Part shown: positions 1 through 46,847 of the stretch, piece after piece
Layout of the letters: each line of letters opens with the position of its first letter
Numbering within the stretch: position 1 is the stretch's first letter
Virus record (IMG/VR): IMGVR_UViG_3300047352_000567
Reading direction: 5' to 3' (one strand)
DNA: 64,000 bases
From: an uncultured virus (IMG/VR IMGVR_UViG_3300047352_000567)
Taxonomy: Duplodnaviria > Heunggongvirae > Uroviricota > Caudoviricetes
Made by a program: the position numbers and the translations under genes
The notes under the pieces: generated by a model
Seen by the model: only the letters and a program-made list of their open reading frames with translations
What the model was told of the DNA's origin: nothing
Database searches by the model: none

Positions 1-283
1 GCATTAGTAAAATATAGATTTGTTGAGCCTTCACTTAGGCTATCAGTATCTGCTGCAGCTATTCTAGCATCTGCTCTAGCATTAGTAAAATATAGATTTG
101 TTGAGCCTTCACTTAGGCTATCAGTATCTGCTGCAGCTATTCTAGCATCTGCTCTAGCATTAGTAAAATATAGATTTGTTGAGCCTTCACTTAGGCTATC
201 AGTATCTGCTGCAGCTATTCTAGCATCTGCTCTAGCATTAGTAAAATATAGATTTGTTGAGCCTTCACTTAGGCTATCAGTAT
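1..283. repeat. 78-bp perfect tandem repeat (about 3.6 copies visible), encoding the 26-aa unit [26 protein letters not shown]
   Basis: Identical units start at 1, 79, 157 and 235; array may continue beyond the window edge. Confidence 0.95.
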
Positions 284-9200: not shown

Positions 9201-10568
9201 TGGAATAATACTCGAATTTACATCAGCACCAAATACCACATTATCAGTGTCTGCATCTCCCATGGTGATTGTACCACCATTAAAAGTTGTAGTGCCTGTA
9301 ACAGTAAGATTACCGCCAACATCAACATTTCCAGAAGTTGAAATAGCATTTACTACCAGCCTATCGTTATCTTCGCTATAGTAAATTCTGGAGTCTGCTT
9401 TTATAGTTTGACCTACTCCACTCACCGCACTTTCAATGCCTACAAGAAATAAGTTATCACCGCTCGGAGTATTTCCGTCATCGTGCTGTGTAACTGTTAC
9501 TGTAAGAGCGGCATCGGACTGTCCAATAGTCGTAGTTGAGTCAAAAGATCCCTTAAAAGTTCCTTCGAACCTACCCGTAAATTGTCCATCAAGATTGCTT
9601 GCAAAAATAGTACCCTTTCCAGGATTATATTGCAATCCAGACTCTGAAAATATTTTTGAAGTCCCGCTTGTACTATCTATAAAAGTAATGAAATGAGTAG
9701 TATCTAAACAAACAGTACCTGTTCCTGAGCCGTTTCCAGTAGCAGTAAATAGCGTTTCTAAAACAGTGCCTGTACCGTAGTTCGAGTTTCCAGTACCCCT
9801 GGCTCTAAATCTGTCTCCAACAGACGGAGGAGTGCTCAGACTTCCCGCACCCAAAGTAATCCAATTAGTAATTTCTACTACTGTGCCCGAACCAGAGCCG
9901 GCACCTGTAGCAGTAAAAGCTAAGCCAACAGTATTAGAAGCTGCCCCAATTGTGGTAAAATCAGAGCCTCCTAAAGACACAATTTTGTAAACTCTAGAGA
10001 CTGAAGTTGCACTAGCGGCCAGAGTACTTCCAAGACTTGTGATAATATATTCGCGGGTGTCAACAATCTGAGGATCAGAAGTTGCAGATATATTTACACT
10101 TTGTGCTCCAATAGAAGCAAAGTCAGTATTTCCAAGAGTCTTAATACCATAAGCAGTGCCATTAACAATTGCAGTAGCAGAAAGTCGAGCACTTTCAACC
10201 CCTAGCTCTGCCGTAGGAACACTAGTTACAGTCTGTACATTAGTTATTCTTCCCTGAGCATCTACGCTAATTACAGGAATAGAACTTGCACTACCATAGT
10301 TTCCAGAGGATACACTTGTATCATCTAAGTCTATCTTTATATTATTATTTGATACGGTGGTAGTTAGACCCGTGCCTCCCTCAAAATTAAGAGTGTCTAC
10401 ACCGAGAGTAACAGTATCATTAGAGCCAGAATCAGCAGAAAGCGTAAAATCAACGCCGCTTAGGCCTTTAATATTATGGTTCCATCGAACACCGTCAAAA
10501 GTCCAAGAAACATCCCCAGAAGTTATTACATCCCCTGTTACGGGGCTTGAAGGAAAACTTATTGCCAC
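1..10568 (-). CDS. Giant tail fibre / adhesin-like protein (>3,500 aa, 3' end outside window)
   Basis: GTG at 10568 with AGGAG RBS ([13 protein letters not shown]...). The same frame is open at every point spot-checked down to base 1 (...[11 protein letters not shown]). Absent from the ORF track, consistent with no stop inside the window. Thr/Gly/Ser-rich with internal repeats. Confidence 0.85.
763..1040. repeat. 150-bp duplicated module ([37 protein letters not shown])
   Basis: AGTAAACTCAATCCACTGAGCACTGTTTCCATCATT at 771 and 921. Confidence 0.9.
4663..4790. repeat. 54-bp tandem repeat (18 aa) in fibre gene
   Basis: CTAGCAC units at 4663, 4717 and 4771. Confidence 0.85.
8280..9100. repeat. 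330-bp (110-aa) tandem duplication, about 2.4 copies, in fibre gene
   Basis: Near-identical blocks start at 8491 and 8821 (ATAGATCCTGCAGCAGTTCC...), with a third partial copy. Confidence 0.9.
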
Positions 10569-13522: not shown

Positions 13523-13924
13523 TTATGTGGGCGGAGTTGGCCAGTCTTCCTCATTAAGAAGAGGCCAGTTTGTATGTGCCGGCAAATCTCTTAGCGCCTG
13601 TCTGTAAACTCGCCACTCAGCCTTTTTGCTATCTGTAAGTGGAGCATCCGATACTTGGGTCCAGTCTGTAGCCGTTAGTTCAGAATTTCTATCCATTCTA
13701 TTTGTGGAATTAGCTTCTGCACTTGCTACTACGTCTATTTCGTCTTGTGGCTTGCTTGCCAAAGCTCCATTTTTTACCACTTGAGTCTTTATATCGGACA
13801 CGGAACCTTCAAGTACACTTTCTCCTTCCCCACACTTACTAGGTACTAAATGATCATTATCACTACTACAGTGTCCTATTCTTACAATTTCTCCTGTAGC
13901 TTCTTTATATATAATATAGTTCAT
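13523..13924 (-). CDS. Tail fibre assembly chaperone-like protein
   Basis: RNSELTATDWTQVSDAPL...WRVYRQALRDLP...WPTPP motif. Confidence 0.75.
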   Translation of the reverse strand: MNYIIYKEATGEIVRIGHCSSDNDHLVPSKCGEGESVLEGSVSDIKTQVVKNGALASKPQDEIDVVASAEANSTNRMDRNSELTATDWTQVSDAPLTDSKKAEWRVYRQALRDLPAHTNWPLLNEEDWPTPPT

Positions 13925-16900
13925 CGTTTTGTCTCCAGTATCATTACATCTCTATCTTGTAATGTTCCACCTGTTGTTCCACCGACGGTTTTTGCATAAA
14001 CATTTATCTTATTTGCTCCTGTTGTACTAGAGTTAAATTGATGAAAGATTGTTATAGGCCCAGTATGGCCCGCATTAGACGATGACTTCGCAGTATTAAG
14101 AAATTTAGTAGCCACAAGAGTGCCTCCATCACTAGGATTAACTCCCGCTGAAGTTGCTGTCACTGGGGCTGAACTACACCCCTGAGTAATTCTCACAGTG
14201 AAACCCACAGATCTACTACTAAGACTTCTAAGAAACTCAAAACTTATCCATAAGCTACAAACTCCACCAGCAGAAGTAATATCTACAGATCCAACTAGTC
14301 CGTATTGATTAAAGCTTAGAGTATTACCCGAACCCAAAAAAGAGTTATCACTTGAAGTTATTTGATTTGCTCCAATATTATCTGTAACAACTCCTCCACT
14401 TTTAATAACAAGTCGACCGGCTGAGTCTGTCTCAAAAGTAGTTGTACCTAGATTTATTCTCGCAGCATTAAGAGTTCCTGTACTAATATTTGATGCACTT
14501 AAATTTATTATACTTACATTTGCCGCATTAAGGGTTCCTGTAGTAATTTTACCACCACTAATAGAAGTTACATCATTAGCTATTGCACTTTGTACATCAG
14601 ATGCGGCAAAAGTCGTAAACCCGCTGGGATTGGTTGAAGCATATGCTGCAATATCTGTTCTAAAAGAAGCAGCATTTGTTATTTTACCTTCTATAAAAGT
14701 CTGCGTTACATCCGAAGACGAAAGCTTAGAATTTGCAGTTGCCTGAGCAGCAGCAGCATTACTATTTGCAGTATTCGCGGTTGACTGAGCCGCAGCAGCA
14801 TTACTATTTGCAGTATTTGCAGTTGACTGAGCTGCACCAGCATTACTATTTGCAGTATTTGCAGTTGACTGAGCTGCAGCAGCATTACTATTTGCAGTAT
14901 TTGCAGTTGACTGAGCCGCAGCAGCATTACTATTTGCAGTATTTGCAGTTGACTGAGCAGCAGCAGCTGCTGTATCATCTGTAGGAGTATACCCAAGAGC
15001 ACTACTAATTTGAGTACCTGTGATTGTAATATCACCATTAATACTTAGAGTACTACCATTCCATGTGAGACGCTGACCATTAGAATTACCAATACTAAAT
15101 TTATAGGCTGAACCACTATATCCTAAAAAGAACCCTACTCCATTATTAAATGCTGATTGTCCTCCTCTAACGTGTCCCCCTGTTCCTACACTTATACCTT
15201 GAAAAATATCTCCAGATGTATCAAAATTCTGAGCACGATTATTTGCAGTATTTGCAGTTGACTGAGCTGTAGCAGCATTACTATTAGCAGTATTTGCAGT
15301 TGACTGAGCTGTAGCAGCATTACTATTAGCAGTATTTGCAGTTGACTGAGCTGTAGCAGCATTACTATTTGCAGTATTTGCAGTTGACTGAGCTGTAGCA
15401 GCATTACTAGTTGCAGTATTTGCAGTTGACTGAGCTGTAGCAGCATTACTAGTTGCAGTATTTGCAGTTGACTGAGCTGCATCTGCTGCTGTATCATCTG
15501 TAGGAGTATACCCAAGAGCACTGCTAATTTGAGTACCTGTGATTGTAATATTGCCAGCAACACTTAAGCTACTACCATTCCATCTTATATGACTAGCATT
15601 TGTTCCAATATCTAGTTTTGCAGTGCCACCATCATTACCTATAAAGAATCCTGCAGTATTTTGACCAAAAGCAGTTTTACCCTGCCTAATTGCCATTCCA
15701 CTTGAGTTTCCTAAATTTATAACTCCTGTTGTTATTCTTCCGCCATCAATAGTTGTACTACCACTTGACCCTATATCAGATGCTTCTAATGGAGTTTTTG
15801 ATGTGCTGCCATCTGTAAGAGTACCCCCACTAAAGACCACAACTCCCGTAAAACTGGTTTGTTGAACAACATTTGTATAAGCAACAGTAATTGTTGAAGA
15901 ACCCGCACTGGATTCTTGGCCATAATATCGAACTGTCCAAAAAAAGTTATCCGAGGTAGCGTCTTGTGTTCGAGGACTGTTTCTCCAAACATTTGTTGTT
16001 CCAGAATCATTTATGCCAGAGCCTGTAACTACTCCTGTACTAAATGTATAGGTATTTCCGCTTGGTGCTGCTGGCGCCCCTGCTGTTGTTTTCTCATAAA
16101 ATAAATATCCTTGGATTGTCCGTAAGCCATCAGATCCAGGAGATCCATTACTTCCTGCTTTTGACTTTGAGAAAGAAAAAGTTCTTTCAAAAGTTGGACC
16201 ACCATTATTTATTATGATTGGAATTGTAAGAGTTCCCGCATCAACTGTAGAAGACATAGCAGTAATATCAATAAAAGCATCTACTGCAGGCGAGCTTCCT
16301 GTTGTAGTAGTGCTAAAAGTTAGTGCATTTGATGGAGACTGCACTATAGTCCCTAACGAATAGGTATTATCAGCCGGGCTTGCGGAAGAATCAAAGTAAT
16401 ATCGTACATCTGAGTTAAATACTCTTATACCAAAGTCTGCCCCCGCAACAGACGATACTACTCCTTCTGCATTTGCTTGAAAAACATGAGACTCGTTATC
16501 TAAAACCGCACTATAGCCGCCACGAGACTGTGTTGTTACTCCAAACAGCTCGAGATTAAATACGGTACCGCTCTTAGTCACCACACCAAAAATACAGTCT
16601 TCTCCAGTATCCGGTACGAGAGATGTAGTATGAAGACTAACACCTGATGTTGTTCTTGTAAATGGAGTAGTTGTTAGCAGTTTTGTATTACTTGTAATAC
16701 TAGATACTACTCTATACTCTGCTGCCGCTACCTCTGTTCCAGCGGAAGAGTTTGCAGAAATTTTTATTAATTGACCTACAACAAGCTCACTACTAAAACT
16801 GGTTGAAGTCCCATGTACAATATTTGAGCCAAAAGTTGTAGACACAGTTCCTGATGTAGTAGACAAACCGTTGTTAGCAGCTCCAAACTCTTTTAGATAA

Positions 16901-19900
16901 GTAAAATTAATCGTATTACCATCTATATCCTCAACCGTAGAATCTGTATGTTCTACTACTCCTTTCCAAGGATCAGAAGCTGCCGCGCTTCTATCAAAGT
17001 ATAAAAATACTTCGTCAGAGGTGCTAATCGTAGAAAATACTTGTATACGCTGTGCAGATGCTGCGCTTAAGAATGCAACTCGAGAAGAAAAGGGCGGTGT
17101 AAAAGTATAATTTCTTGCATTTATAGTAAACAAGCCTGTTGAGGTATTAAAAGTAAAGGGCGCATCTAACTTTCCCCCTCTTGCCACGCCAAGATTACTT
17201 CCCTCCGACGGAAGTTTACCTGCTATGGATGTTGAAGTAATTTCCCAAGGCGATTTTGCACCTAGTGTATTTACTGTGCGTATTTTAACAAGATAATCGC
17301 CCTCAGATACATTATTTACAGTAAAATTTGTAGAGCCTTTTTCTGCTATTGCAATTGTAGTATTTTCTCTTGCAGTTCCGGTACCTGTTAAATCATGAGC
17401 GATTTCGTATCTTTCGGTAAACCTATAGTTTACAGTACGAGTATTACCTGCAGAATCCACAATGCTTTCTACAGGAGGAGTCCAAGTAATAATTGTATCA
17501 AAAGAAATAGGCTGACCTTCTACTGAAGACGAGGCAGAAGGAACCATTTGAAGAGTTAAACCTGTAGGCGGTGGCACCGGTCTATTTGCTGCAGTATCTG
17601 GAACATATCCTGTTGTGTAAGTAGGAACAGCAGTATCTATTTCATCAAATTTTGTTTCTTCGTACTGAGTAGCAGTTAGATCATATTTACCCCCATCATC
17701 CTCTGTAATAGAAGCAATTCTAAATTTCTTAACATTATCTGCAGTTTCATCGTCAGAAATAACTGCCCAAATATAGTCTTGGAGAGGCGCTTGAGAAAAA
17801 GCACCGTTTACAGTAATCGTAGAAGCTGCAGTGCCTGTATTTGTAATATCTTTCGTTTCAATCCTACTACTTGTAGAAAACTGAACATCAATATGGTTTC
17901 CACTATTATCAAAATAATTTATAGAAGCTGCAGATGTAGGGGGGTTGTTTACAAGATCTAAAAGATTTCCGCTAGCATCACGAGCTTCTGGTAAAAAAGC
18001 ACCACGAGTATAAGTAGGCGCACTGCCTGATCCTATTGTTGCAGGAGTATCTTGTGCTAAATATACACCTCCTCCAGGGAATATTATAACTAACTTACAA
18101 TCAGTTCCAACAGTGCCGCCGGGACCAAAATCAACAGTTCTATCTAATACAATGCTATTTGTACTACTGCCAAACCCTACTCGTCCGCTCGATTCTAAGC
18201 TATAGGCTTCCTTGTCTTGTACATTGATTATGTCGCCAGGACGTAAATATGAAGCATTTATTCCTGTAGTAAAGCTAACAATTTCTGTCTCTTTTGTATC
18301 TGTAGCTATGTGCCAGTCTGCTAGCCTTCTTGCCTGACTTTCTGATGTGCAGCCAAAAGCAACAATATCCTTAGGTACTACTTTTCCTTGTTTTACAATA
18401 TTTCCTGTATCCTCTACAGAAAGAACAGTCTTTTTATAAAACTCATCAGGATTATTCCAAGTTACATTTACTTGATTTATTCGTGCTCGCTGTCCTGTAT
18501 ATGTGTAACTAAAAATGCCCTCTTCTACATTTCCTTGAGTGAACGTATAGAGAGCTTCTTTTGGAGAATCTTGAATAGGAGTAATCAATCCATCAATCCA
18601 GCCAAGCATTCCCCTAAAAGTGCTTGCCAAATCTTTCAAAACTTTATAGGATTCCTCTATCTGAGAAATATAAACATTACAGGTAAATCTAGGTTCTAGC
18701 CCTCCTTTTCCATCAGGCACTAATTCATCACAATATCTTGCAATTCTGAATAAAGCAAACTTATCTATATCAGACTCTTCTAAGAACTCGCCTAAACCAT
18801 ATTCTTTATTTATAAGTATATCATAAAAAATCCATGCAGGATTATTACAATATACTTCTCTAAAATTTACATTAGAAGGAGATAAAGTTTTGTCGCCTCT
18901 AAATGATCCTGTCCAAGAAACATAGCTTCCTGTGTCTACACCAGAGAGGTTTCGAGTATATTTAGCAACCCCTGTATTACTTTCCTCTCTCGTAATATAG
19001 TTAGTAGGAACTTTTATTTTCTTACCGTAAATGTGGTATGCTCTTTGTGGAACATTTTGAAAATCTTCCGCAGAGTAAGATACGTATGCAAGAGCAGATG
19101 TTGGATAACTAAATTTATCCTCTATTATGCAGTCAAAAGAGTCAATGACAGCATTTCCAACAAAAGACTCATCCCCGGCGTACGCAAGCTCACTCTCAGG
19201 ACTTAATCTTCTAACTTCTACAGCCCACGAGCTAAAAGGCTGAAACTGCTTTAAGTCTACCTCAAAGGTTGCTACAAAAGCAGGATTGTTTCCTTGCTTT
19301 CTAATTAGACCAGTATTGCCGCCGGTATCTATCCTTGGTCCGCGCGCAGTGTAACTATAAGAAGCTATTGCTATAGCTCTATAGTTATTTTGTGCCTTTC
19401 CACCTGCAGCAGCTTTTGTCCAGTTAGGGACATTACTTAAAAAGTTACTTCCACCATAATCTTTTCCATGAATTAAAACTGCTTTTTCAGGATCAGAGGG
19501 AGTTACTTTATACTTAACAACAACTTGAAATTCTGCATATGCAGGATTATCGTCTCCTTTTACAGAAACGTGTCTTAATCCCCCAGGAAACTTAATATTT
19601 ACTCGTACTCTATCTATTTCTTCTGCGCTATTTTGTGGGAGATTTAAAGAAGAGGAAGTAAGAGCTCCTGCAGCAGGACTCTGGCTGCCATTTGAGCCTT
19701 GCCCAGTAGTAACTCCAGAGACTAGCTTTAACTGTTGGCCCGATGGAATTATAAAATTTGCTGTCTGCGAGCCGCCTATTGATCTAGCCTCAGCATCGCC
19801 CTCTCTTGTTCCTCTTGAAAAATTAGCAGTTAAATTATCATAAGCTAAGTCAAGGCCAGTATTTTGTACATTATAAATATTGGGTACAACCACGGAAGAA

Positions 19901-20523
19901 AGACGAACGCGAGCAGAAGTTACATTTGTTTCTACAGCAGAGCTTAAGGTTGCTGTATTACCATTAGTAATAGAGCTTATTTTTTGTACTTCATCAATGC
20001 TTACTGTAGCACCAGAGTTAACCGCTGTGTATATTGGAGGAAAAATTGTAGCATTTGTACTTGAATTTACAGTTTGAACTATACCTCTGTACTCTCCTCC
20101 ACTCCTTCCCGCACCGGCTATTCTTATAGTATATTTTGCTGTTGAAGGAAGAATAGCATGATTTCCATTTGTTGGATTAAGCTCGTGCTTGGAAGCAAAA
20201 ATACCAGAAGCAGTACTTATATTACGAGTGCCTACTTTAAGCGCCTGGCTTGTTGTTGTATCACTCGGGCCTGCTCCTACTATTTGTAAATATCTGTCAC
20301 CTTGCGATAAATCAATATTTAAAAATAACCCATTTGCATTTGTAACGGATGTGCCAGAAACTGTTGCAGTTCCTGATTTAGCTGTAGCTGTAGCTTTAGT
20401 TTCATCTAGCAAGGCTACGCCATTAAAAAATATACTGGCATACCCATTTACTAGACCGCCTATTTCACCCGCAGCGACTAAATCTATGAGAGCTGCGTGT
20501 TGGTTTTCATAAATTACTGCCAT
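13921..20523 (-). CDS. Central tail tip / host-specificity protein (lambda J-like), 2200 aa
   Basis: NNPAWIFYDIL, YCDELVPDGKGGLEPRFTCN, GCTSESQARR and LRPGDII motifs; follows L, K and I. Confidence 0.9.
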   Translation of the reverse strand: MAVIYENQHAALIDLVAAGEIGGLVNGYASIFFNGVALLDETKATATAKSGTATVSGTSVTNANGLFLNIDLSQGDRYLQIVGAGPSDTTTSQALKVGTRNISTASGIFASKHELNPTNGNHAILPSTAKYTIRIAGAGRSGGEYRGIVQTVNSSTNATIFPPIYTAVNSGATVSIDEVQKISSITNGNTATLSSAVETNVTSARVRLSSVVVPNIYNVQNTGLDLAYDNLTANFSRGTREGDAEARSIGGSQTANFIIPSGQQLKLVSGVTTGQGSNGSQSPAAGALTSSSLNLPQNSAEEIDRVRVNIKFPGGLRHVSVKGDDNPAYAEFQVVVKYKVTPSDPEKAVLIHGKDYGGSNFLSNVPNWTKAAAGGKAQNNYRAIAIASYSYTARGPRIDTGGNTGLIRKQGNNPAFVATFEVDLKQFQPFSSWAVEVRRLSPESELAYAGDESFVGNAVIDSFDCIIEDKFSYPTSALAYVSYSAEDFQNVPQRAYHIYGKKIKVPTNYITREESNTGVAKYTRNLSGVDTGSYVSWTGSFRGDKTLSPSNVNFREVYCNNPAWIFYDILINKEYGLGEFLEESDIDKFALFRIARYCDELVPDGKGGLEPRFTCNVYISQIEESYKVLKDLASTFRGMLGWIDGLITPIQDSPKEALYTFTQGNVEEGIFSYTYTGQRARINQVNVTWNNPDEFYKKTVLSVEDTGNIVKQGKVVPKDIVAFGCTSESQARRLADWHIATDTKETEIVSFTTGINASYLRPGDIINVQDKEAYSLESSGRVGFGSSTNSIVLDRTVDFGPGGTVGTDCKLVIIFPGGGVYLAQDTPATIGSGSAPTYTRGAFLPEARDASGNLLDLVNNPPTSAASINYFDNSGNHIDVQFSTSSRIETKDITNTGTAASTITVNGAFSQAPLQDYIWAVISDDETADNVKKFRIASITEDDGGKYDLTATQYEETKFDEIDTAVPTYTTGYVPDTAANRPVPPPTGLTLQMVPSASSSVEGQPISFDTIITWTPPVESIVDSAGNTRTVNYRFTERYEIAHDLTGTGTARENTTIAIAEKGSTNFTVNNVSEGDYLVKIRTVNTLGAKSPWEITSTSIAGKLPSEGSNLGVARGGKLDAPFTFNTSTGLFTINARNYTFTPPFSSRVAFLSAASAQRIQVFSTISTSDEVFLYFDRSAAASDPWKGVVEHTDSTVEDIDGNTINFTYLKEFGAANNGLSTTSGTVSTTFGSNIVHGTSTSFSSELVVGQLIKISANSSAGTEVAAAEYRVVSSITSNTKLLTTTPFTRTTSGVSLHTTSLVPDTGEDCIFGVVTKSGTVFNLELFGVTTQSRGGYSAVLDNESHVFQANAEGVVSSVAGADFGIRVFNSDVRYYFDSSASPADNTYSLGTIVQSPSNALTFSTTTTGSSPAVDAFIDITAMSSTVDAGTLTIPIIINNGGPTFERTFSFSKSKAGSNGSPGSDGLRTIQGYLFYEKTTAGAPAAPSGNTYTFSTGVVTGSGINDSGTTNVWRNSPRTQDATSDNFFWTVRYYGQESSAGSSTITVAYTNVVQQTSFTGVVVFSGGTLTDGSTSKTPLEASDIGSSGSTTIDGGRITTGVINLGNSSGMAIRQGKTAFGQNTAGFFIGNDGGTAKLDIGTNASHIRWNGSSLSVAGNITITGTQISSALGYTPTDDTAADAAQSTANTATSNAATAQSTANTATSNAATAQSTANTANSNAATAQSTANTANSNAATAQSTANTANSNAATAQSTANTANNRAQNFDTSGDIFQGISVGTGGHVRGGQSAFNNGVGFFLGYSGSAYKFSIGNSNGQRLTWNGSTLSINGDITITGTQISSALGYTPTDDTAAAAAQSTANTANSNAAAAQSTANTANSNAAAAQSTANTANSNAGAAQSTANTANSNAAAAQSTANTANSNAAAAQATANSKLSSSDVTQTFIEGKITNAASFRTDIAAYASTNPSGFTTFAASDVQSAIANDVTSISGGKITTGTLNAANVSIINLSASNISTGTLNAARINLGTTTFETDSAGRLVIKSGGVVTDNIGANQITSSDNSFLGSGNTLSFNQYGLVGSVDITSAGGVCSLWISFEFLRSLSSRSVGFTVRITQGCSSAPVTATSAGVNPSDGGTLVATKFLNTAKSSSNAGHTGPITIFHQFNSSTTGANKINVYAKTVGGTTGGTLQDRDVMILETKR
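14733..15551. repeat. Two arrays of 42-bp repeats (AQSTANTANSNAAA/T) inside a 519-bp duplication in J
   Basis: Arrays at about 14733-14966 and 15240-15480; flank TGTATCATCTGTAGGAGTATACCCAAGAGC at 14971 and 15490. Confidence 0.9.
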
Positions 20524-23027: not shown

Positions 23028-23401
23028 GCTTCATAAATCCGTCTAAAAGTTGCTGTACAGGTATAGAAATCATCATACTCATAAGTCTGACTATAAGTAT
23101 CACAGACAACTTTTATAGTTTTTTCAGAGCTACCGCCAACATTGCTATCTGGAATCGTAAAGTTAAAGGATGTAACTCCTGCTTTATTATCCAAAAATGC
23201 AATGATATCATCTATCTCTTCTTTTGTTCTATTTCTAAAAGTCAGTTTATAGTCTTCGGCAAGGTTATTTATCCCGTTCACAGCTCTCTGCTCATAGCCA
23301 TCGCCAAAAGAAATTCTATGAACACGAGGTTTAGAGGATTTTGTAAATCCTTTATCTGGTATTCGTTGAGTATTTGTTAAGTCTGTAAATCCAAGTGCCA
23401 T
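23024..23401 (-). CDS. Minor tail protein M-like (distal tail)
   Basis: FGDGYEQRAVNGIN...ATFRRIYE. Confidence 0.85.
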   Translation of the reverse strand: MALGFTDLTNTQRIPDKGFTKSSKPRVHRISFGDGYEQRAVNGINNLAEDYKLTFRNRTKEEIDDIIAFLDNKAGVTSFNFTIPDSNVGGSSEKTIKVVCDTYSQTYEYDDFYTCTATFRRIYEA

Positions 23402-26400
23402 TATGCTGCTCCATAGGGGCTAAGAATACCTCCAGGACGTTTTTGTCTCTGTAGTTCCTCTTGTACAGCCATTGAAATAACTTTACCTAATTTAGCCCCC
23501 TGCCCCGGCTGAGCTGAGGCATCACTTTGAGCATTTCCTTGATTATCAATATTTACTGTGATGCCAATATTATTGCTCATTGCTCCTCCACGCATTTCGA
23601 CAGGAATCTTATTTCCATCCGGTAAAGGTACAACTGCTTCATTACCATGTAACATTGCGGGGTATCCTGCCTGTGGGCCTCTTGCAATTCCTCCAGTAGA
23701 ATATCCACCTGTTATTCCTCCATATCTAAAAGGTAAGAAAGATAAAATAGAAGAAAGAAAGCCACCATCCCCTCCAATACCCCCAAGCAATCCTTCGAAT
23801 AAAGCACTAAAGCCGTCTGCACCACTCATAAGAGTTTTTCCTAATTTTGTTAAAAAGCCCCCTTCCGCTTGTTTATCGAAAATTGCACCGAAGTCATCTA
23901 AGAATGGTCGAAAAATACCTATTTTCGTTGCTCCAACAACCGCCTCATCCATACCACCTGGATTATGTACGGAACCCTCATACCCGGCTCCGCCTTTACC
24001 AAATAAATAGTTCATAAAACCACCCTTTTTTGGAGTAGCAGATGTACCACTTGCCAAGGCTCCTTGAGCACCTCCTGGGCTAGCATTGCTAGTGGGCGTA
24101 CTTGTATAGGTTCCACCGCTTGACTCTATAATTGCTTTCTTGAAAAACTCTGATCCTATTTGAGAAGCATCTACTATTGCTTTATGTTGAATTTGTGCAC
24201 CCGCTTCTATACCTTCTACAACTTTCTCTTTCATCAGCTCTTCTGGCGATTTAATACCAAATAATCCAGACATTATTTTAGTTGTAAACTGTTTTGCAAG
24301 AGTATCCGCAATAGCATTTCCTATGCCCTGAGCAATTCCTAAAATAGCATCTTTTATGCTATTCTCCTGCCCTTTAATTATAGCAGCTATCTTTGATTGT
24401 AAACCAGTTTCAAGTGCTTGAGCAGCACTATCCTGAATCTGCTTCATTTCATCTTTCTGACGTCTTAATAGCTCTAACTGAGTTTCAGATCTTTGAATAG
24501 CTATATTTTGTCTTTCGAGTTCTCTTTCTTTTTCTCCATTTATTCTTTGTGCAATGTCGAAGCGTTCTTGTTCTGCGTTGTTACCTTCTTGCACCAGTGA
24601 AAGCTCTTGGTCCAGTTTAGCCGGTGTCGCGTCTATAATATTCTGCTGGGCTTGCCGGGCAAGAAGTATGTTCTTTTGCTCTTTAAGAATCGCAGCCGAT
24701 AGTTTAATTTCTTGCTGAACTAATCTTGTTTTTCCAATGCTTAATTGTTTTTCAGCATTATCAATCGCAGACGTTAGTCGCAATTCTTGTTGTTTTTGCT
24801 CATTTATTCTTGTTAGTAAACTTATTTGATCTTCTATTAATTTTTTTCTTGTTACTTCTTTCTCTAGAAGTTTTCCTGTCTCTTTATCTATCACGTCTAT
24901 TAAGCTAGCTTCTAATTTTAATCCTCTAATTGCTGAATCAAATTCGTTCTCAGGCAAAAACTTTGAAAATATCTTTGAAACTGCTTGTATGTTTTTTGTT
25001 TGCTCAACAGTAAAAGAGTTAATTGCATTATTTAAGAGTAAGAACCTTTCTCTTGCTATGTCTAATCCTTCAGGGTTTTTACCTGTTTTATTTAACTCTT
25101 CTAAGGCTGCTCTATACTGCTTAACGGCCGGTGTGGATTTTAAATACTCATTAGTGGTATTATTTAAAAAGTCTAATTGTGCTTTTAACTGAGTAGCCAA
25201 CTCTTTTGCAATGGGACTAGACTTTTCATTTTGTATAACAAAGTCAAAGTAAGTCTTATTATACTTACTTAAAATGGCTTCGCGCTCTGCTTCTTCTCTG
25301 GCTAAATCTCTCTGCGCCTTAATATTATTGTTATCAACCTTTAGTTTATTTTTAGATACTTTTATATTAAAATTTATAAGTTCGAGGCGTTTGCTCTCGC
25401 GTCGAGTTAAATTTGCAATCTGATTAGTGTACTCAGCAAGACTACCGCCCGCATCTTTAAACATATTCGCATCTACGGTGCTCTCTAGAGACTCTACAGG
25501 AATATTAGCAACTCTAGCTCCAAAAGCAGTTATAGCTTGTAAGCCTCTTTCAAGAGATGAATTTATTGCTTCTTGTCGCTCTGCAAAGGCTTCATTTTCT
25601 TTATTTATATTTTCAAGAGTTCTTAATAGTTCGTCAGCTTTTACACTTGTTTTTGTAACTTCTTCTTTTGTTCGAAAAAATGAAAAAGCTAAACTTCCAA
25701 CAAGAGCGACGGTGGATGCAATCGAAAGAAAAGAAAATAGACCAGCAATTGCAGCACCCGCCACTCTTGCGCCTACAGCAACTTTTGTAAATGCTTTTGA
25801 AGCGCTTACACCTAGACTTACAAAACGTACTTTAGTTTTATTTATGCCCGCAGCTGTGTCGGCTGCCATTTTACCAGCAACTCTTTTATTATTTACTTCC
25901 ATTTCAGTGAGAACTGAAAGTAATTCTTTTTTCCTTTTCTTATTTAATTTTGAATAAAGTCCACCTTGTTTATTTAAGCTTCTTTTTAAATTTCTTATTT
26001 GATTATTTTCTAACTGCCCTGAGTCTCGTAGCGTACTAATAAGGCTATTTTTTCTCAGTTTTGTTTCGCTTGCTATCTGAGATGCAACCGCTTTTCCTCT
26101 CTGAGAGATTGCTTTTTTTGCTTCTTTGGGGTCTAATGACTTCCTTTGTTGTACAGCAAACTCCTCTTGTTTTTGAGTCAAGGAATCATACATTTCCTCT
26201 GCCCTAAGAGTTACACTATCAAGTTTATCACCAAGATTATCTAGCTGCGGGAGAGCTGCTTTTGCTATTTGAGCAGTAAATGGAGCAAAGGCGAGTGCTA
26301 TGAGTGCAGGAAATTGCGTAAGAGTAGTAGCGATTGGTCCAGCAAGCTCGACTGCCAATCCTCTAACTTGATTTATTAAGTCATCAAAGGCTTTTCCAAG

Positions 26401-27162
26401 TTTAGCAAACTCATTAGATGCAATAAGCCCAGAATCTGCAATATTTCCAAACTTCTCATCAACCTGAGCAAGAACATCTCGAGTAACGGCTTGACTTCGC
26501 TCAAAAGCTGATAAGTCGTTCGCATTTTTTCCTAGTGCTATTGCATAGTCATTTGTCGCTTTTTCTAGTCGTAAAATAATACCTAACTCATCCAGCAGTT
26601 CAGGCTCTGCTTTTGTTACACCACGAATTAAACGATTGAAGGAGTCTGTAAGATCTCTTCCAAGAGTAACAGAAGTTATTCTTGCTGCAGCACCTAGATC
26701 AACAAGTTGTTGTGCACTTAAACCTGCTGCAGTACCAATTGCAGCAGCTTGAGATGCATCTCTGAAGTTAATTTGAGCATCAGTAGCTGCAACAATATTA
26801 TCAGTCAAAGACTTCATGGAGGTGCCAACAGTTGCAGCATAAGCAACTTGACCTTGCTGGAGCTGCCTCAGCGCGCCCGCCTCTTTTAGAAAGCCAAAAG
26901 CAGCAGTAACAGCAAAAATTTGTGCGGCAAGAGTTGCATAGGCAGGAACAAGACCTCCCGATATGCCGGAAGATAAGTTTGCAAAGTTTTTACCAGCAGA
27001 GCTTGCTGTTTGAGCCATCCCTCGTTGTGCGCGGCCTACACCTTTTGAGCCCTTCTCAGTATCAACCATAGCTTTTTTTAGCTTATTGGCGTTTACTGCA
27101 AGTCTCTCTGTTGTGCCTTTATCATCAACAATGACTTCAATAAATACTGTATTTTTTGCCAT
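23401..27162 (-). CDS. Tape measure protein
   Basis: 1253 aa, helical; KAEPELLDELGI motif; position after chaperones. Confidence 0.9.
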   Translation of the reverse strand: MAKNTVFIEVIVDDKGTTERLAVNANKLKKAMVDTEKGSKGVGRAQRGMAQTASSAGKNFANLSSGISGGLVPAYATLAAQIFAVTAAFGFLKEAGALRQLQQGQVAYAATVGTSMKSLTDNIVAATDAQINFRDASQAAAIGTAAGLSAQQLVDLGAAARITSVTLGRDLTDSFNRLIRGVTKAEPELLDELGIILRLEKATNDYAIALGKNANDLSAFERSQAVTRDVLAQVDEKFGNIADSGLIASNEFAKLGKAFDDLINQVRGLAVELAGPIATTLTQFPALIALAFAPFTAQIAKAALPQLDNLGDKLDSVTLRAEEMYDSLTQKQEEFAVQQRKSLDPKEAKKAISQRGKAVASQIASETKLRKNSLISTLRDSGQLENNQIRNLKRSLNKQGGLYSKLNKKRKKELLSVLTEMEVNNKRVAGKMAADTAAGINKTKVRFVSLGVSASKAFTKVAVGARVAGAAIAGLFSFLSIASTVALVGSLAFSFFRTKEEVTKTSVKADELLRTLENINKENEAFAERQEAINSSLERGLQAITAFGARVANIPVESLESTVDANMFKDAGGSLAEYTNQIANLTRRESKRLELINFNIKVSKNKLKVDNNNIKAQRDLAREEAEREAILSKYNKTYFDFVIQNEKSSPIAKELATQLKAQLDFLNNTTNEYLKSTPAVKQYRAALEELNKTGKNPEGLDIARERFLLLNNAINSFTVEQTKNIQAVSKIFSKFLPENEFDSAIRGLKLEASLIDVIDKETGKLLEKEVTRKKLIEDQISLLTRINEQKQQELRLTSAIDNAEKQLSIGKTRLVQQEIKLSAAILKEQKNILLARQAQQNIIDATPAKLDQELSLVQEGNNAEQERFDIAQRINGEKERELERQNIAIQRSETQLELLRRQKDEMKQIQDSAAQALETGLQSKIAAIIKGQENSIKDAILGIAQGIGNAIADTLAKQFTTKIMSGLFGIKSPEELMKEKVVEGIEAGAQIQHKAIVDASQIGSEFFKKAIIESSGGTYTSTPTSNASPGGAQGALASGTSATPKKGGFMNYLFGKGGAGYEGSVHNPGGMDEAVVGATKIGIFRPFLDDFGAIFDKQAEGGFLTKLGKTLMSGADGFSALFEGLLGGIGGDGGFLSSILSFLPFRYGGITGGYSTGGIARGPQAGYPAMLHGNEAVVPLPDGNKIPVEMRGGAMSNNIGITVNIDNQGNAQSDASAQPGQGAKLGKVISMAVQEELQRQKRPGGILSPYGAA

Positions 27163-31756: not shown

Positions 31757-33760
31757 TTAAGCTACAGAGTCTATCTTAATTGAAGGTTGATCGGCTGATG
31801 CGCCTGCTACAAGCTCTTCAAAACCAAGTGATTGAGTAGCAACGATTACTCGACGCTGATTCATCACTTCGTAGTCTTGCTCAACTGATACACCACGAAG
31901 ACGTGGCATTACATAGTTACGAGCATATACTGCGAATGCTACTGGAGCGTCGGCTGCTTCTGCAGGAAACTCTTCAGATACCACTACGGGTGAACCGAAT
32001 ACTGCACCCAAGCTACCAGTTACTCGTACGGCCAAGTCGTTGCCAACTTCGTCCAGAGTCTGGAATGCTGAGTCGCTCAACAGATCATAGTACATTGCTT
32101 GGCTAACGATGTATACTACATCAGAGGGGCTCAAGCCGTACTTGCCCATTTGCTTACGAGCAGCCAATAGCTGAGCTGCTGTCATCGTAGCAAAGTTTCC
32201 AGAAGCTACGCTGGCACCATCAGCATCGTGCTTGGCGGTAGCAATTGCAGCGTGTCCGTCAAGACCGCTGATGTTAGAGCCATTACCATTAAGAATAGCA
32301 CTCTCTACTGCACGACCGTGTGCACGAGCAACACCTTCGATAAGCATAGGCATCAAGTTAATGAGTACTTGCTCGTCGACTTCGTTATCCATAAAGGTGC
32401 TTGAAATCAAGCGGTCAGCATTCAAGATAACTTGCTTAGGCTTGTAGGAGTTATCAGATGCGCCACGATTTTCCAAGTTACCAGAAGTAGCATTGGTTGC
32501 AAAAGTTGCAGGCTCAACATCTACAGAGATAGGAAGAACCGTTGCGGCACCATTAACAGGGATTTCGCGGAATAATGCCGCTACTTTCAGCTCATTTTGA
32601 ATTTCTTTCTCGATAAGAGAAGATACTTCTTGGTCGATATCAGCTGCGTTTGCTGTATAGTTAATACCAGCTTTTTCCTGAATATTACGAGCAAAATCAG
32701 TGTCCCAACCCTTACGAGTCATTACACCTAGCATGTGAGCATTCAAGAAGTCTTTGCCCCAAGCAGAGATGTCACTCTTTTCAGCACGATCAGCGAATAC
32801 ACGCTTAGACTCACGCATCTTGGTGATTTCTTCGCTCTTCTCTTCGAGCTCTTTCTTGTACTTAGCAAGAGTTTCTTGCATGTCAGCATTACGGTCATTA
32901 AGACCCTTTTGAACATCCTCAAGAAGGCGCTCAGTGCCTGATTCAATACCAGTAACTACTGCTTGCTTAACTTCTTCCTCTTGCTGAGCCTTAGCTTCTG
33001 CTTCTGCAGCAGCTTTTTCAACAGCTTCTTGTTGTGCCGCTTCTTCAGCAGCTTTAGTTTCGGCTTGCTTCATTGCAATCTTGGCAGCAGTTTCCTCTGC
33101 TACCTTCTTAGCAAATGCTTCCAAGTCGATTTCGGGAGTTTTTACCTCGTCCGACATTTTGATCTCCTTTTGAGCTTGCGCTCCGTCCAGTGTGTCACTA
33201 GCTACCGATAAATTATCATCTTTAGCCAGAGACTGACTGGCTAGATCTACACGATTGGTGAAAGTTTTCTTAAAGTCTTCATACTCTGCTTGAGAGTCAA
33301 AAGACTTCGCCAGAGAAAAAGTAGCTGCTTGATTGCAAGGAACGGATACTACCGAAACTTCAAACAACTCAGCGTCCTTTATCTTATATCCGTCAGTTTC
33401 CGATAAGTAATCAGCATCCTTGACTCGGAAACCAACAGAAAAGGCTCCAAGGACACCGTCTTTAACTAAGTCGCACACAAAATCAGGTGCGGACTTACTA
33501 ATCTTTGCCTCCAGCTCTAGGCCGTTTGGCGTAACTTTTAATCCAGTAGCCCTTCCAATGGGCTTATTATAATCATGATTAAAGAGAATAATAGGATTAG
33601 ACTCAAAATTCTTTAAGCCACCCTTCGTCCATGCATCTGGAGAAATTGTATCTCCTGCACGATCAAAGTCATTAGTGCTGGCCATTCCGCGAATCATCAC
33701 ACTTCCGTCTTCAATTTCGTGTGATTTAAACGTAGAAGTAAGATTAAATATTTTATTCAT
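31757..33760 (-). CDS. HK97-family prohead protease fused to major capsid protein
   Basis: N-terminal ILFNHDYNKPIG, FSVGF and LFEVSVVSVPCN (protease), then a coiled-coil scaffold and HK97-type capsid; internal RBS + ATG at 33157. Confidence 0.9.
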   Translation of the reverse strand: MNKIFNLTSTFKSHEIEDGSVMIRGMASTNDFDRAGDTISPDAWTKGGLKNFESNPIILFNHDYNKPIGRATGLKVTPNGLELEAKISKSAPDFVCDLVKDGVLGAFSVGFRVKDADYLSETDGYKIKDAELFEVSVVSVPCNQAATFSLAKSFDSQAEYEDFKKTFTNRVDLASQSLAKDDNLSVASDTLDGAQAQKEIKMSDEVKTPEIDLEAFAKKVAEETAAKIAMKQAETKAAEEAAQQEAVEKAAAEAEAKAQQEEEVKQAVVTGIESGTERLLEDVQKGLNDRNADMQETLAKYKKELEEKSEEITKMRESKRVFADRAEKSDISAWGKDFLNAHMLGVMTRKGWDTDFARNIQEKAGINYTANAADIDQEVSSLIEKEIQNELKVAALFREIPVNGAATVLPISVDVEPATFATNATSGNLENRGASDNSYKPKQVILNADRLISSTFMDNEVDEQVLINLMPMLIEGVARAHGRAVESAILNGNGSNISGLDGHAAIATAKHDADGASVASGNFATMTAAQLLAARKQMGKYGLSPSDVVYIVSQAMYYDLLSDSAFQTLDEVGNDLAVRVTGSLGAVFGSPVVVSEEFPAEAADAPVAFAVYARNYVMPRLRGVSVEQDYEVMNQRRVIVATQSLGFEELVAGASADQPSIKIDSVA

Positions 33761-44037: not shown

Positions 44038-44673
44038 ATGAATAAATTACAGACTCAGCAGGCTCGGCTCAATCAAATCGTAATGCAAGAGGACTTTGGT
44101 CCAGTTGCGGTTGTGCTTGAAGGGCGTGATACTGCGGGTAAATCATCTACGATCCGAGAAGTGACCCACTACTTGCCTGTAAGCAAGTTTAGTGTCCAGC
44201 TATCGGCCAAGCCTAGTAAAGAAACTATGGACAATTGGTTAGGATACTGGAGAACTAAAATGCCATCGGGCAATCAAGTGGTGTTCTACGATCGCTCTTG
44301 GTACTCGAGAGCAATGGTACAAAAGATTAATGGCTGGTGTACGGACGAGCAGTATAAAATCTTCATGGAAACTGTGGAAGCATGGGAAATATGTCAACCT
44401 GTTCACATGATTAAGTTCTGGCTGTCCATCAGCGAAGAAGAGCAACATAACAGAATCAGTGAGAGAAAGCATTCTCCACTAAAATTCTGGAAGCTCTCAC
44501 CAAATGACGAACGTGCCCTTTCTTATTATGACGAAATGACTTTGCTTAAAGAGCGAGTTATCACGAGAGGAGACTGGCACACTATTGACTACAACAACAA
44601 AGCAGAAGGACGGCTCGCTCTTATCACAAAACTCTGCGATATTCTGGAGACCAAAAGTGAAAAAAGTTCTTGA
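44038..44673 (+). CDS. ppk2: Polyphosphate kinase 2 (compact)
   Basis: EGRDTAGKSS Walker A, DRSWY, KFWLSISEEEQ and WKLSPND motifs; own promoter. Confidence 0.92.
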   Translation: MNKLQTQQARLNQIVMQEDFGPVAVVLEGRDTAGKSSTIREVTHYLPVSKFSVQLSAKPSKETMDNWLGYWRTKMPSGNQVVFYDRSWYSRAMVQKINGWCTDEQYKIFMETVEAWEICQPVHMIKFWLSISEEEQHNRISERKHSPLKFWKLSPNDERALSYYDEMTLLKERVITRGDWHTIDYNNKAEGRLALITKLCDILETKSEKSS

Positions 44674-44734: not shown

Positions 44735-45070
44735 ATGGCAGATTCAGTTAACTACACCGCGGACATGGTTGCAAGCATGACCGAGCAGTACGAAGCTGAG
44801 CCTACAATGGCAACAGTAGAAGCACTTGCTTCTCAATTCAGCAAGCCAAAGCGCAGCATCATCTCTAAGCTGTCTAACATTGGCATCTACGTTCCTGCAA
44901 GCAAGGGCAAAACCAAAGCCGGTGCTCCTGTAGTTCGCAAAGACGAGCTGGTAGAGCAGATTCAAGATGCTCTTGGTACTGATCTCAGCCTGCCTTCTTT
45001 GGGCAAAGCTACCAAGTCGGACCTACTGACTTTGTTGGCTATCGTTGAGACCAATGCCGAGGCTAACTAA
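44735..45070 (+). CDS. A2-like DNA-binding protein paralogue
   Basis: NYT...RSIISKL...GIY...RKDELV...SLGKATK; start at ATG 44735 after promoter and GGGAG. Confidence 0.7.
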   Translation: MADSVNYTADMVASMTEQYEAEPTMATVEALASQFSKPKRSIISKLSNIGIYVPASKGKTKAGAPVVRKDELVEQIQDALGTDLSLPSLGKATKSDLLTLLAIVETNAEAN

Positions 45071-45363
45071 TTCGGTGAAGCTAAAGTAGGATTGAGTGGA
45101 CGGGGGTTCGATTCCCCCCTCCTCCACCAAGAGTACTCTGATACGTTTCGGCGTCAGTAAGTCGGGTAGATTCGCAATCTTCCGCTACAGAGTGCTCTTA
45201 ATGGGGGAGCACGGTTTCGACAAGCAATCTCAGGTTAGTGGAGAATCGGTGTGCAAGCTACCGTAAACGTAAGAACCTAAACTAAACGCAAACGATGACG
45301 TTTATTCTCTAGCTGCATAAGCTAGCGGGGAGAGCCTTTCGCCTTGTTACCCAAAGGAGAGGC
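45071..45363 (+). ncRNA. ssrA: Circularly permuted (two-piece) tmRNA
   Basis: The 3' acceptor half GGGGGTTCGATTCCCCC-CTCCTCC-ACCA (ends 45129) precedes the 5' half GGGGGAG...TTCGAC (starts 45203). G3.U Ala determinant present. Tag ANDDVYSLAA* at 45288-45320. Confidence 0.9.
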
Positions 45364-45474
45364 ACTTAGTAAGCATACTGGGAAGACCGCGACCGTCCCC
45401 TGCGTAGGGATGGATATGTCAGAAAAGATCGGGGAGAAGCAAATCGTGACCCCAGCCCAGTATGTTTTCTAAGT
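45364..45474 (+). ncRNA. Unassigned structured RNA, about 110 nt
   Basis: Long closing stem ACTTAG-TAAGCATACTGGG / CCCAGTATGTTTT-CTAAGT with internal hairpins; lies between tmRNA and tRNA. Confidence 0.55.
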
Positions 45475-45481
45475 TAATTTT

Positions 45482-45555
45482 CTAGGGGTGGCGGAGAGGC
45501 TACGCAACGGACTGCAACTCCGTGTACGTCGGTTCGATTCCGACCTCCTAGTCCA
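45482..45555 (+). tRNA. tRNA-Cys (GCA)
   Basis: Acceptor CTAGGGG/CTCCTAG, U discriminator, encoded CCA, anticodon arm ACGGA-CTGCAAC-TCCGT, T-loop TTCGATT. Confidence 0.92.
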
Positions 45556-45617
45556 CAAAAAACATTTGACATGAAATGCGTAAGCTTGTATAATATACGC
45601 ATATTCAGGGAGAAACG

Positions 45618-45812: not shown

Positions 45813-46032
45813 AGGAAAGAAACCCGCAAAGATTGCATCTACAAAGCGAGTAAGTCGCAAGCGTATGCTCGGAGAGCAAGAAGTATTTCCTGTTCGCTGC
45901 GTAAGCCGACGAGAGGGTATGAACTATGATATCCTAGGAGGCTTTGTGCGAGAGGGTCGTGATAGTGTAAAAACGATCTATGGCAGTGATGGTAAACCAG
46001 TACCATTCGGAAAGATTGGAAAATTAGTATAA
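45805..46032 (+). CDS. Hypothetical basic protein
   Basis: AGGAGG RBS. Confidence 0.65.
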   Translation: MARGKKPAKIASTKRVSRKRMLGEQEVFPVRCVSRREGMNYDILGGFVREGRDSVKTIYGSDGKPVPFGKIGKLV

Positions 46033-46084
46033 CCTTTGCAAAAATAATTGTTGACAGAAAGGTTATTTTTTGAGATAATATTTC

Positions 46085-46540
46085 TTCAAATTTAAGGAGC
46101 AGTGTCGACCATGGGCGAACTGCAGGGTGTTTGTACGACCCCATTGTTGCTGGGCAATGCCTAAAATCCAGCCGTATGACTCCCTGGGATGAGAGAATCG
46201 TTAAAGTGTCATCCCCGTTTGGCCCATTCGATAAGTGGCTCACACATAATTGGTATTAATTCCTATGTTTGTGTGTAAATTACGCTCTGGGCATATCCCC
46301 ACAATCCAGAGTAGGGAAGCGATATGTACTGTCTGTGATTCGCTTGCGAGTGGAGGAAGTAGGAGGGGCCCCACTCATCTATTTAACTACGGAGGTCAGT
46401 AGCTAGGCCGGACATCGCGAAAGCATGAGAGCCGGATAGTCAACGGAGTCGTTGGAGAGCACTTGTAATTTGGATGCATCGCAAGCAAGCCCGCTTCGCT
46501 CATCGTGAGGTGAGATAAACGAAGAGTACTCAACTGGAGA
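46085..46540 (+). ncRNA. Large unassigned structured RNA (about 450 nt)
   Basis: Own promoter TTGACA-17-GATAAT (46051-46079) and own terminator; no + strand ORF in the track; many nested stems. Confidence 0.7.
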
Positions 46541-46578
46541 AATGCCCTAAGGTGTCCAAGCCTTGGGGCATTTTTTTA
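46540..46578 (+). terminator. Intrinsic terminator
   Basis: AAATGCCCTAAGG...CCTTGGGGCATTTTTTTT. Confidence 0.85.
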
Positions 46579-46649
46579 TACCTATTCAAAAAAATTTCTT
46601 GACTTTTTTCTTCATGTCCCTTATAATATAATAAATGAGGAGAAAGTAC

Positions 46650-46847
46650 ATGGCAGATATGATCCCCGCAGTAGGTGCTATTATACCGAGCACCACCTCT
46701 CGACAAGAAGTAGTAACCAAAGTGTATGAAGGCGACCGGCCTGGCACTACACAGGTTCACTCAACAGTCTACAATATAACTATTTACGACGTAAATGGTA
46801 AGCTGCAAACAGTTACAAACTCGCATGTAATTAACTACACAGTGTAG
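46650..46847 (+). CDS. Hypothetical protein
   Basis: Promoter 46599-46627; AGGAG RBS before ATG 46650. Confidence 0.6.
   Translation: MADMIPAVGAIIPSTTSRQEVVTKVYEGDRPGTTQVHSTVYNITIYDVNGKLQTVTNSHVINYTV

Follow-up and report, generated by a model that had tools for sequence, protein, structure and literature searches.

We report a gene for a large ornate RNA that represents a new family, carried by uncultured marine phages related to T5. Within the window (the whole stretch of 64,000 nucleotides that was analysed), the gene lies between a promoter and a terminator of its own, and comparison with its homologues predicts a conserved fold in which at least 14 helices make up three domains and which includes one pseudoknot, two GNRA-capped arms and invariant sequences in loops and junctions (Table 1). 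It displays the hallmarks of a structured non-coding RNA gene, namely compensatory base changes, strand-specific G-U pairs, dedicated transcription signals and no conserved open reading frame, and it is highly probable that this is a real gene of that kind whose family is missing from Rfam. What the RNA does can be suggested only by analogy: the best explanation overall, to which we assign a probability of roughly 0.55, is an uncatalogued multi-domain RNA gene with a role similar to that of GOLLD and ROOL.

The window is part of a tailed-phage genome and contains genes for a portal, a prohead protease-capsid fusion, a large terminase, a T5-type tail completion protein, a DnaB-like helicase and a ligase. 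Identity of the terminase to its counterparts in cultured Demerecviridae (Pectobacterium phage My1, Vibrio phage 234P1 and Serratia phages) does not exceed ~48%, and the carrier belongs to an uncultured clade of marine T5-like (Demerecviridae-related) phages. The prohead protease (S78) and major capsid domains are fused in a single 667-residue open reading frame (ORF; 31757-33760, minus strand), and two further ORFs on this strand, in the structural region, are very long: 3-10568, which exceeds 3,522 amino acids and is open at the window edge, and 13921-20523, which spans 2,200 amino acids. A 1,253-amino acid ORF (23401-27162) had no Pfam match. From ~42 kb onwards the genome carries many small plus-strand genes, several of them with near-perfect sigma-70 promoters; those of the neighbours of the RNA gene (45566-45594, with 12 of 12 consensus matches, and 46599-46627, with 11 of 12, both on the plus strand) are conserved in relatives. 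Such individual promoters are the layout of a T5-like early region, with many short independent transcription units. The neighbouring small genes belong to no known family.

The new RNA is part of a cluster of RNA genes, with a permuted tmRNA and a tRNA-Cys located 0.5-1 kb upstream. Both neighbours are also found in relatives L001-L003, L007 and L008, and the tmRNA in L010. The phage tmRNA encodes the tag peptide ANDDVYSLAA, and its counterparts in relatives score 74-79 bits with the betaproteobacterial tmRNA model, under the cut-off of 84, a resemblance that may hint at a betaproteobacteria-like host lineage. Just upstream of the cluster lies a gene for polyphosphate kinase 2 (PPK2; 44038-44673, plus strand, Pfam E-value 4e-43).

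The earlier note on this DNA had proposed a dedicated promoter and terminator around an RNA of ~450 nt ending at 46540. Both signals were found and both are conserved among the homologues with their ends present, but the RNA extends further, through the T run of the terminator to 46577, which corrects its length to ~490 nt. The promoter consists of TTGACA, a 17-nt spacer and GATAAT with an upstream TG (11 of 12 consensus matches in a promoter scan which, over 2.4 kb, returned 9 promoter-like sites vs 3.9 ± 2.2 in shuffled sequences), and transcription would start at approximately 46086, after two small ORFs. The same type of promoter precedes the RNA in all viral homologues and in 16 of 18 metagenome homologues (the other two had no match, L037 being cut at its 5' end), and every homologue with its ends present retains both this promoter type and the terminator. 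The latter is visible in the minimum free energy (MFE) fold, was not listed by the simple consensus scan, and forms a hairpin whose 11 pairs are 100% paired across 17 homologues, with 4 changed on both sides.

The next plus-strand gene (ORF 46635-46847) follows shortly after this terminator, as might be expected if the RNA were a cis-acting leader or attenuator of that gene. We consider this very unlikely, because the downstream gene has its own conserved promoter past the terminator (the 11-of-12 match given above), an RNA of 500-660 nt with three domains is far larger than known leaders, no riboswitch or T-box model matches it, and L308 and L071 retain the RNA although their flanking genes differ.

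Relatives were collected with an exact 30-mer, a neighbouring 75-amino acid protein and three degenerate patterns, which yielded 11 IMG/VR contigs, and with a metagenome scan, in which 18 of 46 loci proved to be true homologues according to nhmmer. In total, 18 distinct full-length relatives (17 plus L308) were identified on marine viral and metagenome contigs, with lengths of 498-661 nt when measured from the first base downstream of the -10 hexamer through the complete T run. The gene is present in 20 sequencing runs from 16 studies, all of them marine or seawater. The sequences fall into three groups: group A is the type found in the window (6 sequences), group B (10 sequences) possesses an additional folded 5' module of ~90 nt, and group C consists of L071, which has a differing 5' end. 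L308 and L056 contain a further module of ~70 nt inside the 5' domain (385-455 in L308), which is closed by a CUGGGU/ACCCAG helix and matches neither tRNA nor any Rfam family. A metatranscriptome contig (run X15, record 6) has ~81 extra letters between sequences that flank positions 46092-46097 of the window, which suggests that a window-type variant with an inserted 5' module exists in the wild population.

Beyond these relatives, no match was found in 50,697 phage records, either for the RNA (blastn) or for the surrounding 12 kb (megablast). A covariance model of the central domain, R1, detected the RNA in none of three cultured T5-like phages (Vibrio phage 234P1, Pectobacterium phage My1 and Serratia phage Kamaji), while two positive-control records in this search were both matched. 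A loose two-block pattern returned over 105 loci from viruses and over 119 from genome contigs; one new homologue was real after nhmmer filtering among the viral loci listed, and none was among the 119 bacterial or archaeal loci listed. So far, the RNA is specific to one clade of uncultured marine T5-like phages. No description of it was found in literature searches. Fremin & Kyrpides 2023 report 8,495 IMG/VR candidates with an average size of 67 nt (PMC10690425); the sample numbers of five homologue contigs are absent from the searched part of the supplements to that study, and a fragment of the RNA may be listed elsewhere in them.

Table 1 The RNA-gene cluster and the predicted elements of the new RNA (window coordinates).
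Feature	Position	Strand	Description
Permuted (two-piece) tmRNA	45033-45411	+	Rfam tmRNA_permuted, 103 bits
tRNA-Cys	45482-45555	+	Member of the RNA-gene cluster to which the new RNA belongs
Sigma-70 promoter	46051-46079	+	-35 at 46051-56, extended -10 at 46071-79
Whole RNA gene	46086-46577	+	~490 nt, promoter to terminator; no conserved ORF, no Rfam family
5' domain	46099-46141	+	P1 46099-102/46120-23 plus inner extension; P2 46125-28/46138-41; read from the alignment
H-type pseudoknot	46142-46172	+	S1 46142-46/46155-59; S2 46149-53 (S1 loop)/46168-72
Hairpin Pi	46186-46215	+	46186-92/46209-15; conserved 16-19 nt loop with CG(A/U)UAAA
Central domain	46221-46376	+	Five hairpins: Pj, Pe, Pf, Pg, Ph
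Pj	46221-24/46237-40	+	Near-invariant CGAUAA in loop
Pe	46241-46/46270-75 plus 46252-53/46262-63	+	
Pf	46285-90/46306-11	+	Invariant CCCCAC in loop
Pg	46317-22/46340-45	+	
Ph	46348-53/46371-76	+	Purine-rich loop
Inter-domain linker	46377-46401	+	Single-stranded; GGAG motif mostly conserved
3' domain	46402-46540	+	Pa, Pd, Pb, Pc, Pc'
Pa, variable arm	46402-05/46437-40; 46408-11/46432-35	+	GAAA-capped tip 46419-22
Pd, junction helix	46446-49/46528-31	+	Never varies, hence uninformative
Pb, variable arm	46462-65/46482-85	+	Missing from most of group B
Pc	46494-98/46520-24	+	5/5 pairs changed on both sides
Pc'	46499-504/46509-14	+	100% paired, invariant GUGA tetraloop
Intrinsic terminator	46542-46577	+	Hairpin 46542-46571, T run to 46577; MFE fold and covariation

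The case for the fold comes from the pattern of changes among the homologues. The RNA was split at conserved anchors and its pairs were counted per block. Compensatory changes among the marine virome and metagenome homologues were observed in all three blocks and affect about half of the 76 pairs counted in total, with the qualification that the homologues form a few close groups whose changes are inherited together, so that cell counts overstate the number of independent events. For all counted blocks, none of 500 shuffles reached the observed percentage of paired cells or the covariation score, and controls in which the partner strand was slid by 1-3 columns contained only 0-4 pairs changed on both sides. 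The peripheral modules are variable: these comprise the ~90-nt 5' module, the further ~70-nt module, the two arms Pa and Pb, and a whole tRNA that is present in one variant.

At the 5' end of the RNA, groups B and C have a substituted or enlarged version of the part formed by P1 and P2, and the extension of P1 shows one compensatory change (C-G to U-A in L007 and L060) that was read from the alignment and lies outside the pair counts. In the pseudoknot that follows, a comparison of the window with L003 within group A shows compensatory changes in each of the two helices, and S2 has a middle pair that occurs as five pair types in groups B and C. For these two groups (11 sequences), the 5' block including the pseudoknot comprises 16 pairs; 94.9% of its cells are paired, and changes on both sides are seen in 7 of the 16. 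Hairpin Pi, which belongs to the same block, has changes on both sides in 5 of its 7 pairs, with 98.7% of cells paired in groups B and C, and its pairing is kept in group A with a different sequence.

For the central domain, the R1 model matched all 21 loci at 110-196 bits and had a single match in the window. When 17 sequences are aligned with plain MAFFT, the proportion of paired cells is 93.5% (of 537), and 17 of 34 pairs are changed on both sides (2-4 in the slid controls). The values rise to 98.2% and 20 of 34 when 21 sequences are realigned to R1 (1-4 in the slid controls), an alignment which, being fitted to the model, leans towards structure. The individual hairpins differ in how much they vary: the four pairs of Pj occur in six sequence versions, Pf is wholly different between groups A and B and is paired in both, one pair of Pg occurs as four pair types, and Pe is almost invariant (L071 has GC/GC for GG/CC). 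Of 17 variants, 13 carry a 6-nt palindrome of A and U in the Pe loop.

The core of the 3' domain together with the terminator (46443-46577) was likewise assessed in a plain MAFFT alignment, where 98.2% of 442 cells are paired and 10 of 26 pairs are changed on both sides, vs 0-1 in the slid controls. For arms Pa and Pb, which lie outside the pair counts, compensatory changes are apparent by eye in the alignments. The tip of Pb carries palindromes that differ between variants (8 nt in the window, at 46473-46480, 10 nt in L007, another 8-mer in L008, L062 and L071, and a 6-mer in L019). It is possible that these and the Pe loop palindrome serve as contacts between copies of the RNA; they are not universal, and palindromes of such sizes are common by chance.

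Of the eight stems put forward in the earlier note, seven are borne out by covariation (GCTGG/CCAGC, GGGATGA/TCATCCC, CACACA../..TGTGTG, CTCTGG/CCAGAG, AAGCGA/TCGCTT, GAGTGG/CCACTC and CTTCG/CGAAG). The enclosing ATGGGC/GCCCAT stem has to be abandoned, as its 3' partner is lost in L007 and L060; its bases belong instead to Pj, in which GGCC pairs locally with GGCT to form four base pairs, all of which covary. Several additional long-range pairings that were considered could not be substantiated. Those of the Pj loop (UCGAU) with 46451-55 and of the 5' ACUCC (46179-83) with GGAGU (46445-49) or the linker GGAG involve partners that are invariant or change on one side, and the former is broken in L071. 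The exchange of GG/CC for GC/GC in L071, which is local, contradicts pairing of the Pe loop AUUCC with GGAGU, and a UGG..GC pairing with GCCCG around Pb fails in L008, L062 and L071.

The comparative data also assign the structure to a strand. G-U combinations occupy 59 cells vs 7 for A-C across all counted pairs, which indicates that the structure belongs to the plus-strand RNA. The folding energy of the single sequence is unremarkable (z = -2.14 for the plus and -2.53 for the minus strand) and does not discriminate between the strands, so that the case for structure rests on the comparative data. Equally good folding of both strands is what one would see if the conserved element acted at the level of DNA, for instance as a replication or packaging site with inverted repeats that mimic RNA helices. 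Such an element is extremely improbable given the excess of G-U over A-C, the promoter and terminator that bracket the region in one orientation, the presence of a pseudoknot and GNRA loops, and the recovery of the region in contigs from RNA libraries.

We then consider coding potential. On the plus strand, the region contains short ORFs of 42, 45 and 50 amino acids only, and no ORF of at least 25 amino acids on either strand keeps its position or length among 17 homologues. Plus-strand ORFs in these sequences range from 25 to 74 amino acids at inconsistent positions, the longest in L071 having 31. The most suggestive candidate for a small-protein mRNA, or for a dual-function RNA, is a 17-codon ORF (46111-46164) with an AAGGAG located 11 nt upstream of its ATG. 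A coding function is nevertheless hardly to be expected, since this ORF has 12 codons in L003, L007, L008 and L062 and is essentially missing in group B (where it is reduced to AUG-UGA), the substitutions within its 17 codons are exactly those that compensate one another in helices S1 and S2, and the other ORFs are unconserved too.

Contigs from RNA libraries cover the gene in four of four marine RNA runs (3 studies), which we take as a hint of expression, bearing in mind that cover was read from assembled contigs, which reveal neither the strand nor the ends nor the level of a transcript. A 419-nt contig of run X19 corresponds exactly to 46096-46512 and has a depth of 272.6, vs 13-67 for the flanks. 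In the other three runs the depth of the gene equals that of its flanks, and carried-over DNA may contribute. Parts of the gene are without contig cover in some of the runs. Contigs from two studies end at 46512-14, to which we attach no meaning because another contig from the same run bridges this place.

The invariance of the loops in an RNA whose stems covary, together with the strong promoter and the one RNA run with a depth far above the flanks, would also be compatible with a protein-binding decoy or sponge, in which loop motifs sequester a defence protein or a factor of the host, or bring in a protein of the phage, in the course of infection. The motif CG(A/U)UAA(A)G recurs in the neighbouring Pi and Pj loops, and there are several GGA/GGAG purine motifs. 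We judge a decoy unlikely: no partner protein is indicated, the small genes nearby offering no known family, the GGA motifs are estimated to occur near chance frequency, and the centre of the purine loop of Ph varies (AGGAGG, AGGUGG, AGGCGG, AGAGCGG), which argues against strict recognition of the Shine-Dalgarno type. For this last reason, sequestration of the anti-Shine-Dalgarno sequence by the Ph loop was also rejected.

In L003 (identical to L057), the inter-domain linker is interrupted after window position 46383 by a 75-nt insert, which scores 52.6 bits against the Rfam tRNA model and is drawn by ARAGORN as a normal cloverleaf with an 8-nt anticodon loop, while the remainder of the RNA is intact around it. 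The insert is a true tRNA, found in 1 of 18 distinct variants. It occupies 1404-1478 of L003, and ARAGORN calls it 'tRNA-?(Asn|Stop)' with anticodon gtta. Candidate identities are a tRNA-Asn that has gained an additional base, a suppressor-like tRNA or one that reads four bases. RNase P and the 3' processing machinery of the host would be expected to cut the RNA at an embedded tRNA. If the tRNA is excised in this way, the two parts of the RNA would need no covalent joining. Alternatively, the insertion could be a tolerated accident.

The proximity of a permuted tmRNA and a tRNA, and the embedded tRNA of this variant, bring to mind a new ribozyme whose conserved junctions and pseudoknot form an active site, for example for processing the two-piece tmRNA or tRNAs. 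The RNA has the size and complexity of a large ribozyme, with invariant junction nucleotides, GNRA loops and a pseudoknot. Catalysis is nonetheless improbable in light of the lack of similarity to RNase P, group I or group II introns or any Rfam small ribozyme, the missing RNase P signature, and invariant loops that show no complementarity to either the tmRNA or the tRNA-Cys nearby; moreover, processing of this kind is already performed by host enzymes.

In line with the assertion that the RNA belongs to no recognised family, no Rfam match above cut-offs was obtained for it, whether in the window or at 12 homologue loci. At gathering thresholds, a search of the whole window returned the tmRNA and tRNA-Cys only. 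With the threshold relaxed to E ≤ 10, the region 45900-46700 gave weak matches of at most 21 bits, to the terminator plus a 41-nt chance match to sR24 (16.4 bits) inside the body of the RNA, and the 12 homologue loci gave weak matches of at most 26.5 bits, all under the family cut-offs and mostly to the terminator or flanks (the other short match inside the body of the RNA, also below cut-off, was to HIV-1_SL3 in L071, with 16.7 bits). The RNase P signature GAGGAAAGTCC is absent from 46085-46577 even with up to 2 mismatches, in agreement with what had been said of it, and no RNase P model in Rfam matched the window or the homologue loci. Nor was there any Rfam match to group I or group II intron models; there is no interrupted gene with flanking exons, and the RNA is served by a promoter and a terminator of its own. 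Models for GOLLD (RF02032, gathering score 150 bits) and ROOL (RF03087, 99.1 bits) produced no match at E ≤ 10 in 45900-46700, at the 12 homologue loci or in the whole records of five relatives, the runs on these five records being without positive control in that no control genome scored over the cut-off. The proposal that the RNA might be either a relative of GOLLD and ROOL or a new class is thereby narrowed: kinship is not detectable with the models, and a new class fits. Because it shares the genomic niche and architecture of these RNAs and has no match to their models, we file it as a new family of that kind.

The analogy with GOLLD and ROOL draws on the genomic niche, the size class, the modular ornate fold and the single tRNA-bearing variant, and it leads us to a working model. 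The gene would be transcribed by the host RNA polymerase, probably early in infection, and the RNA would act in trans as a folded particle, as neither a message nor a leader, with two halves that may be able to function without a covalent link. As an analogue of GOLLD and ROOL, it might be an architectural RNA that supports or shelters part of the translation or tRNA economy of the phage. An architectural or self-assembling mode of action of this type is a tentative proposal, by analogy with those families.

GOLLD self-assembles as a closed 14-mer cage, and the ROOL cage is an octamer. The notion that the new RNA is a third, independently evolved phage lineage that assembles into a multimeric particle or shell, tied to the tRNA/tmRNA toolkit, is more speculative, and we think it rather doubtful. 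Under this scenario, the 5'/central and 3' parts would be separable and able to associate even when transcribed with an intervening tRNA, and the self-complementary loops (the Pe loop and the Pb tips) would provide the contacts between copies. If it were true, RNA-only compartments would be a general phage strategy that extends to very different hosts, including those of abundant ocean phages. Whatever its mode of action, large conserved RNAs with complex folds are rare, and those that are known (RNase P, self-splicing introns, OLE, GOLLD and ROOL) have either revealed new biochemistry or are still puzzles. At ~500 nt, and with natural minimal and expanded forms, the RNA described here offers a compact new subject for structural work and for studies of its role in the phage.

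Among known systems, bacterial RNase P RNA resembles the new RNA in its length (~400 nt), modular peripheral arms, long-range interactions and link to tRNA/tmRNA genes; it differs in that no Rfam match connects the two, the GAGGAAAGUCC signature is absent even with 2 mismatches and no P4-type pairing can be demonstrated. ROOL is closer in character. It is of a similar size class (its model has 574 positions), occurs in phages and prophages near tRNA islands, and has multiple pseudoknots and no known protein partner, whereas the new RNA has no match to its model and is found in marine T5-like phages rather than in rumen or Lactobacillales sources. A recent report calls ROOL a 'nanocage' and describes both ROOL and GOLLD as residents of phages and prophages near tRNA islands, with pseudoknotted folds that build RNA-only cages and with neither a function nor a protein partner known (10.1101/2024.12.08.627333). 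As for GOLLD, no match to its model was found, the host and type of phage differ, and the new RNA measures 498-661 nt whereas GOLLD has 'many members exceeding 800 nt' (10.1101/2024.12.08.627333). On the other hand, GOLLD is phage-encoded, lies close to tRNA genes and sometimes contains a tRNA in its inter-domain linker (10.1101/2024.12.08.627333), and the new RNA does the same: it is located in a phage genome near tRNA genes, has a large multi-domain fold with conserved and variable parts, and can accommodate a tRNA in the linker between its domains, as in L003. That an RNA with no relation to catalogued families shares the habits of GOLLD and ROOL suggests that these habits are a solution arrived at repeatedly and not an oddity confined to those two.
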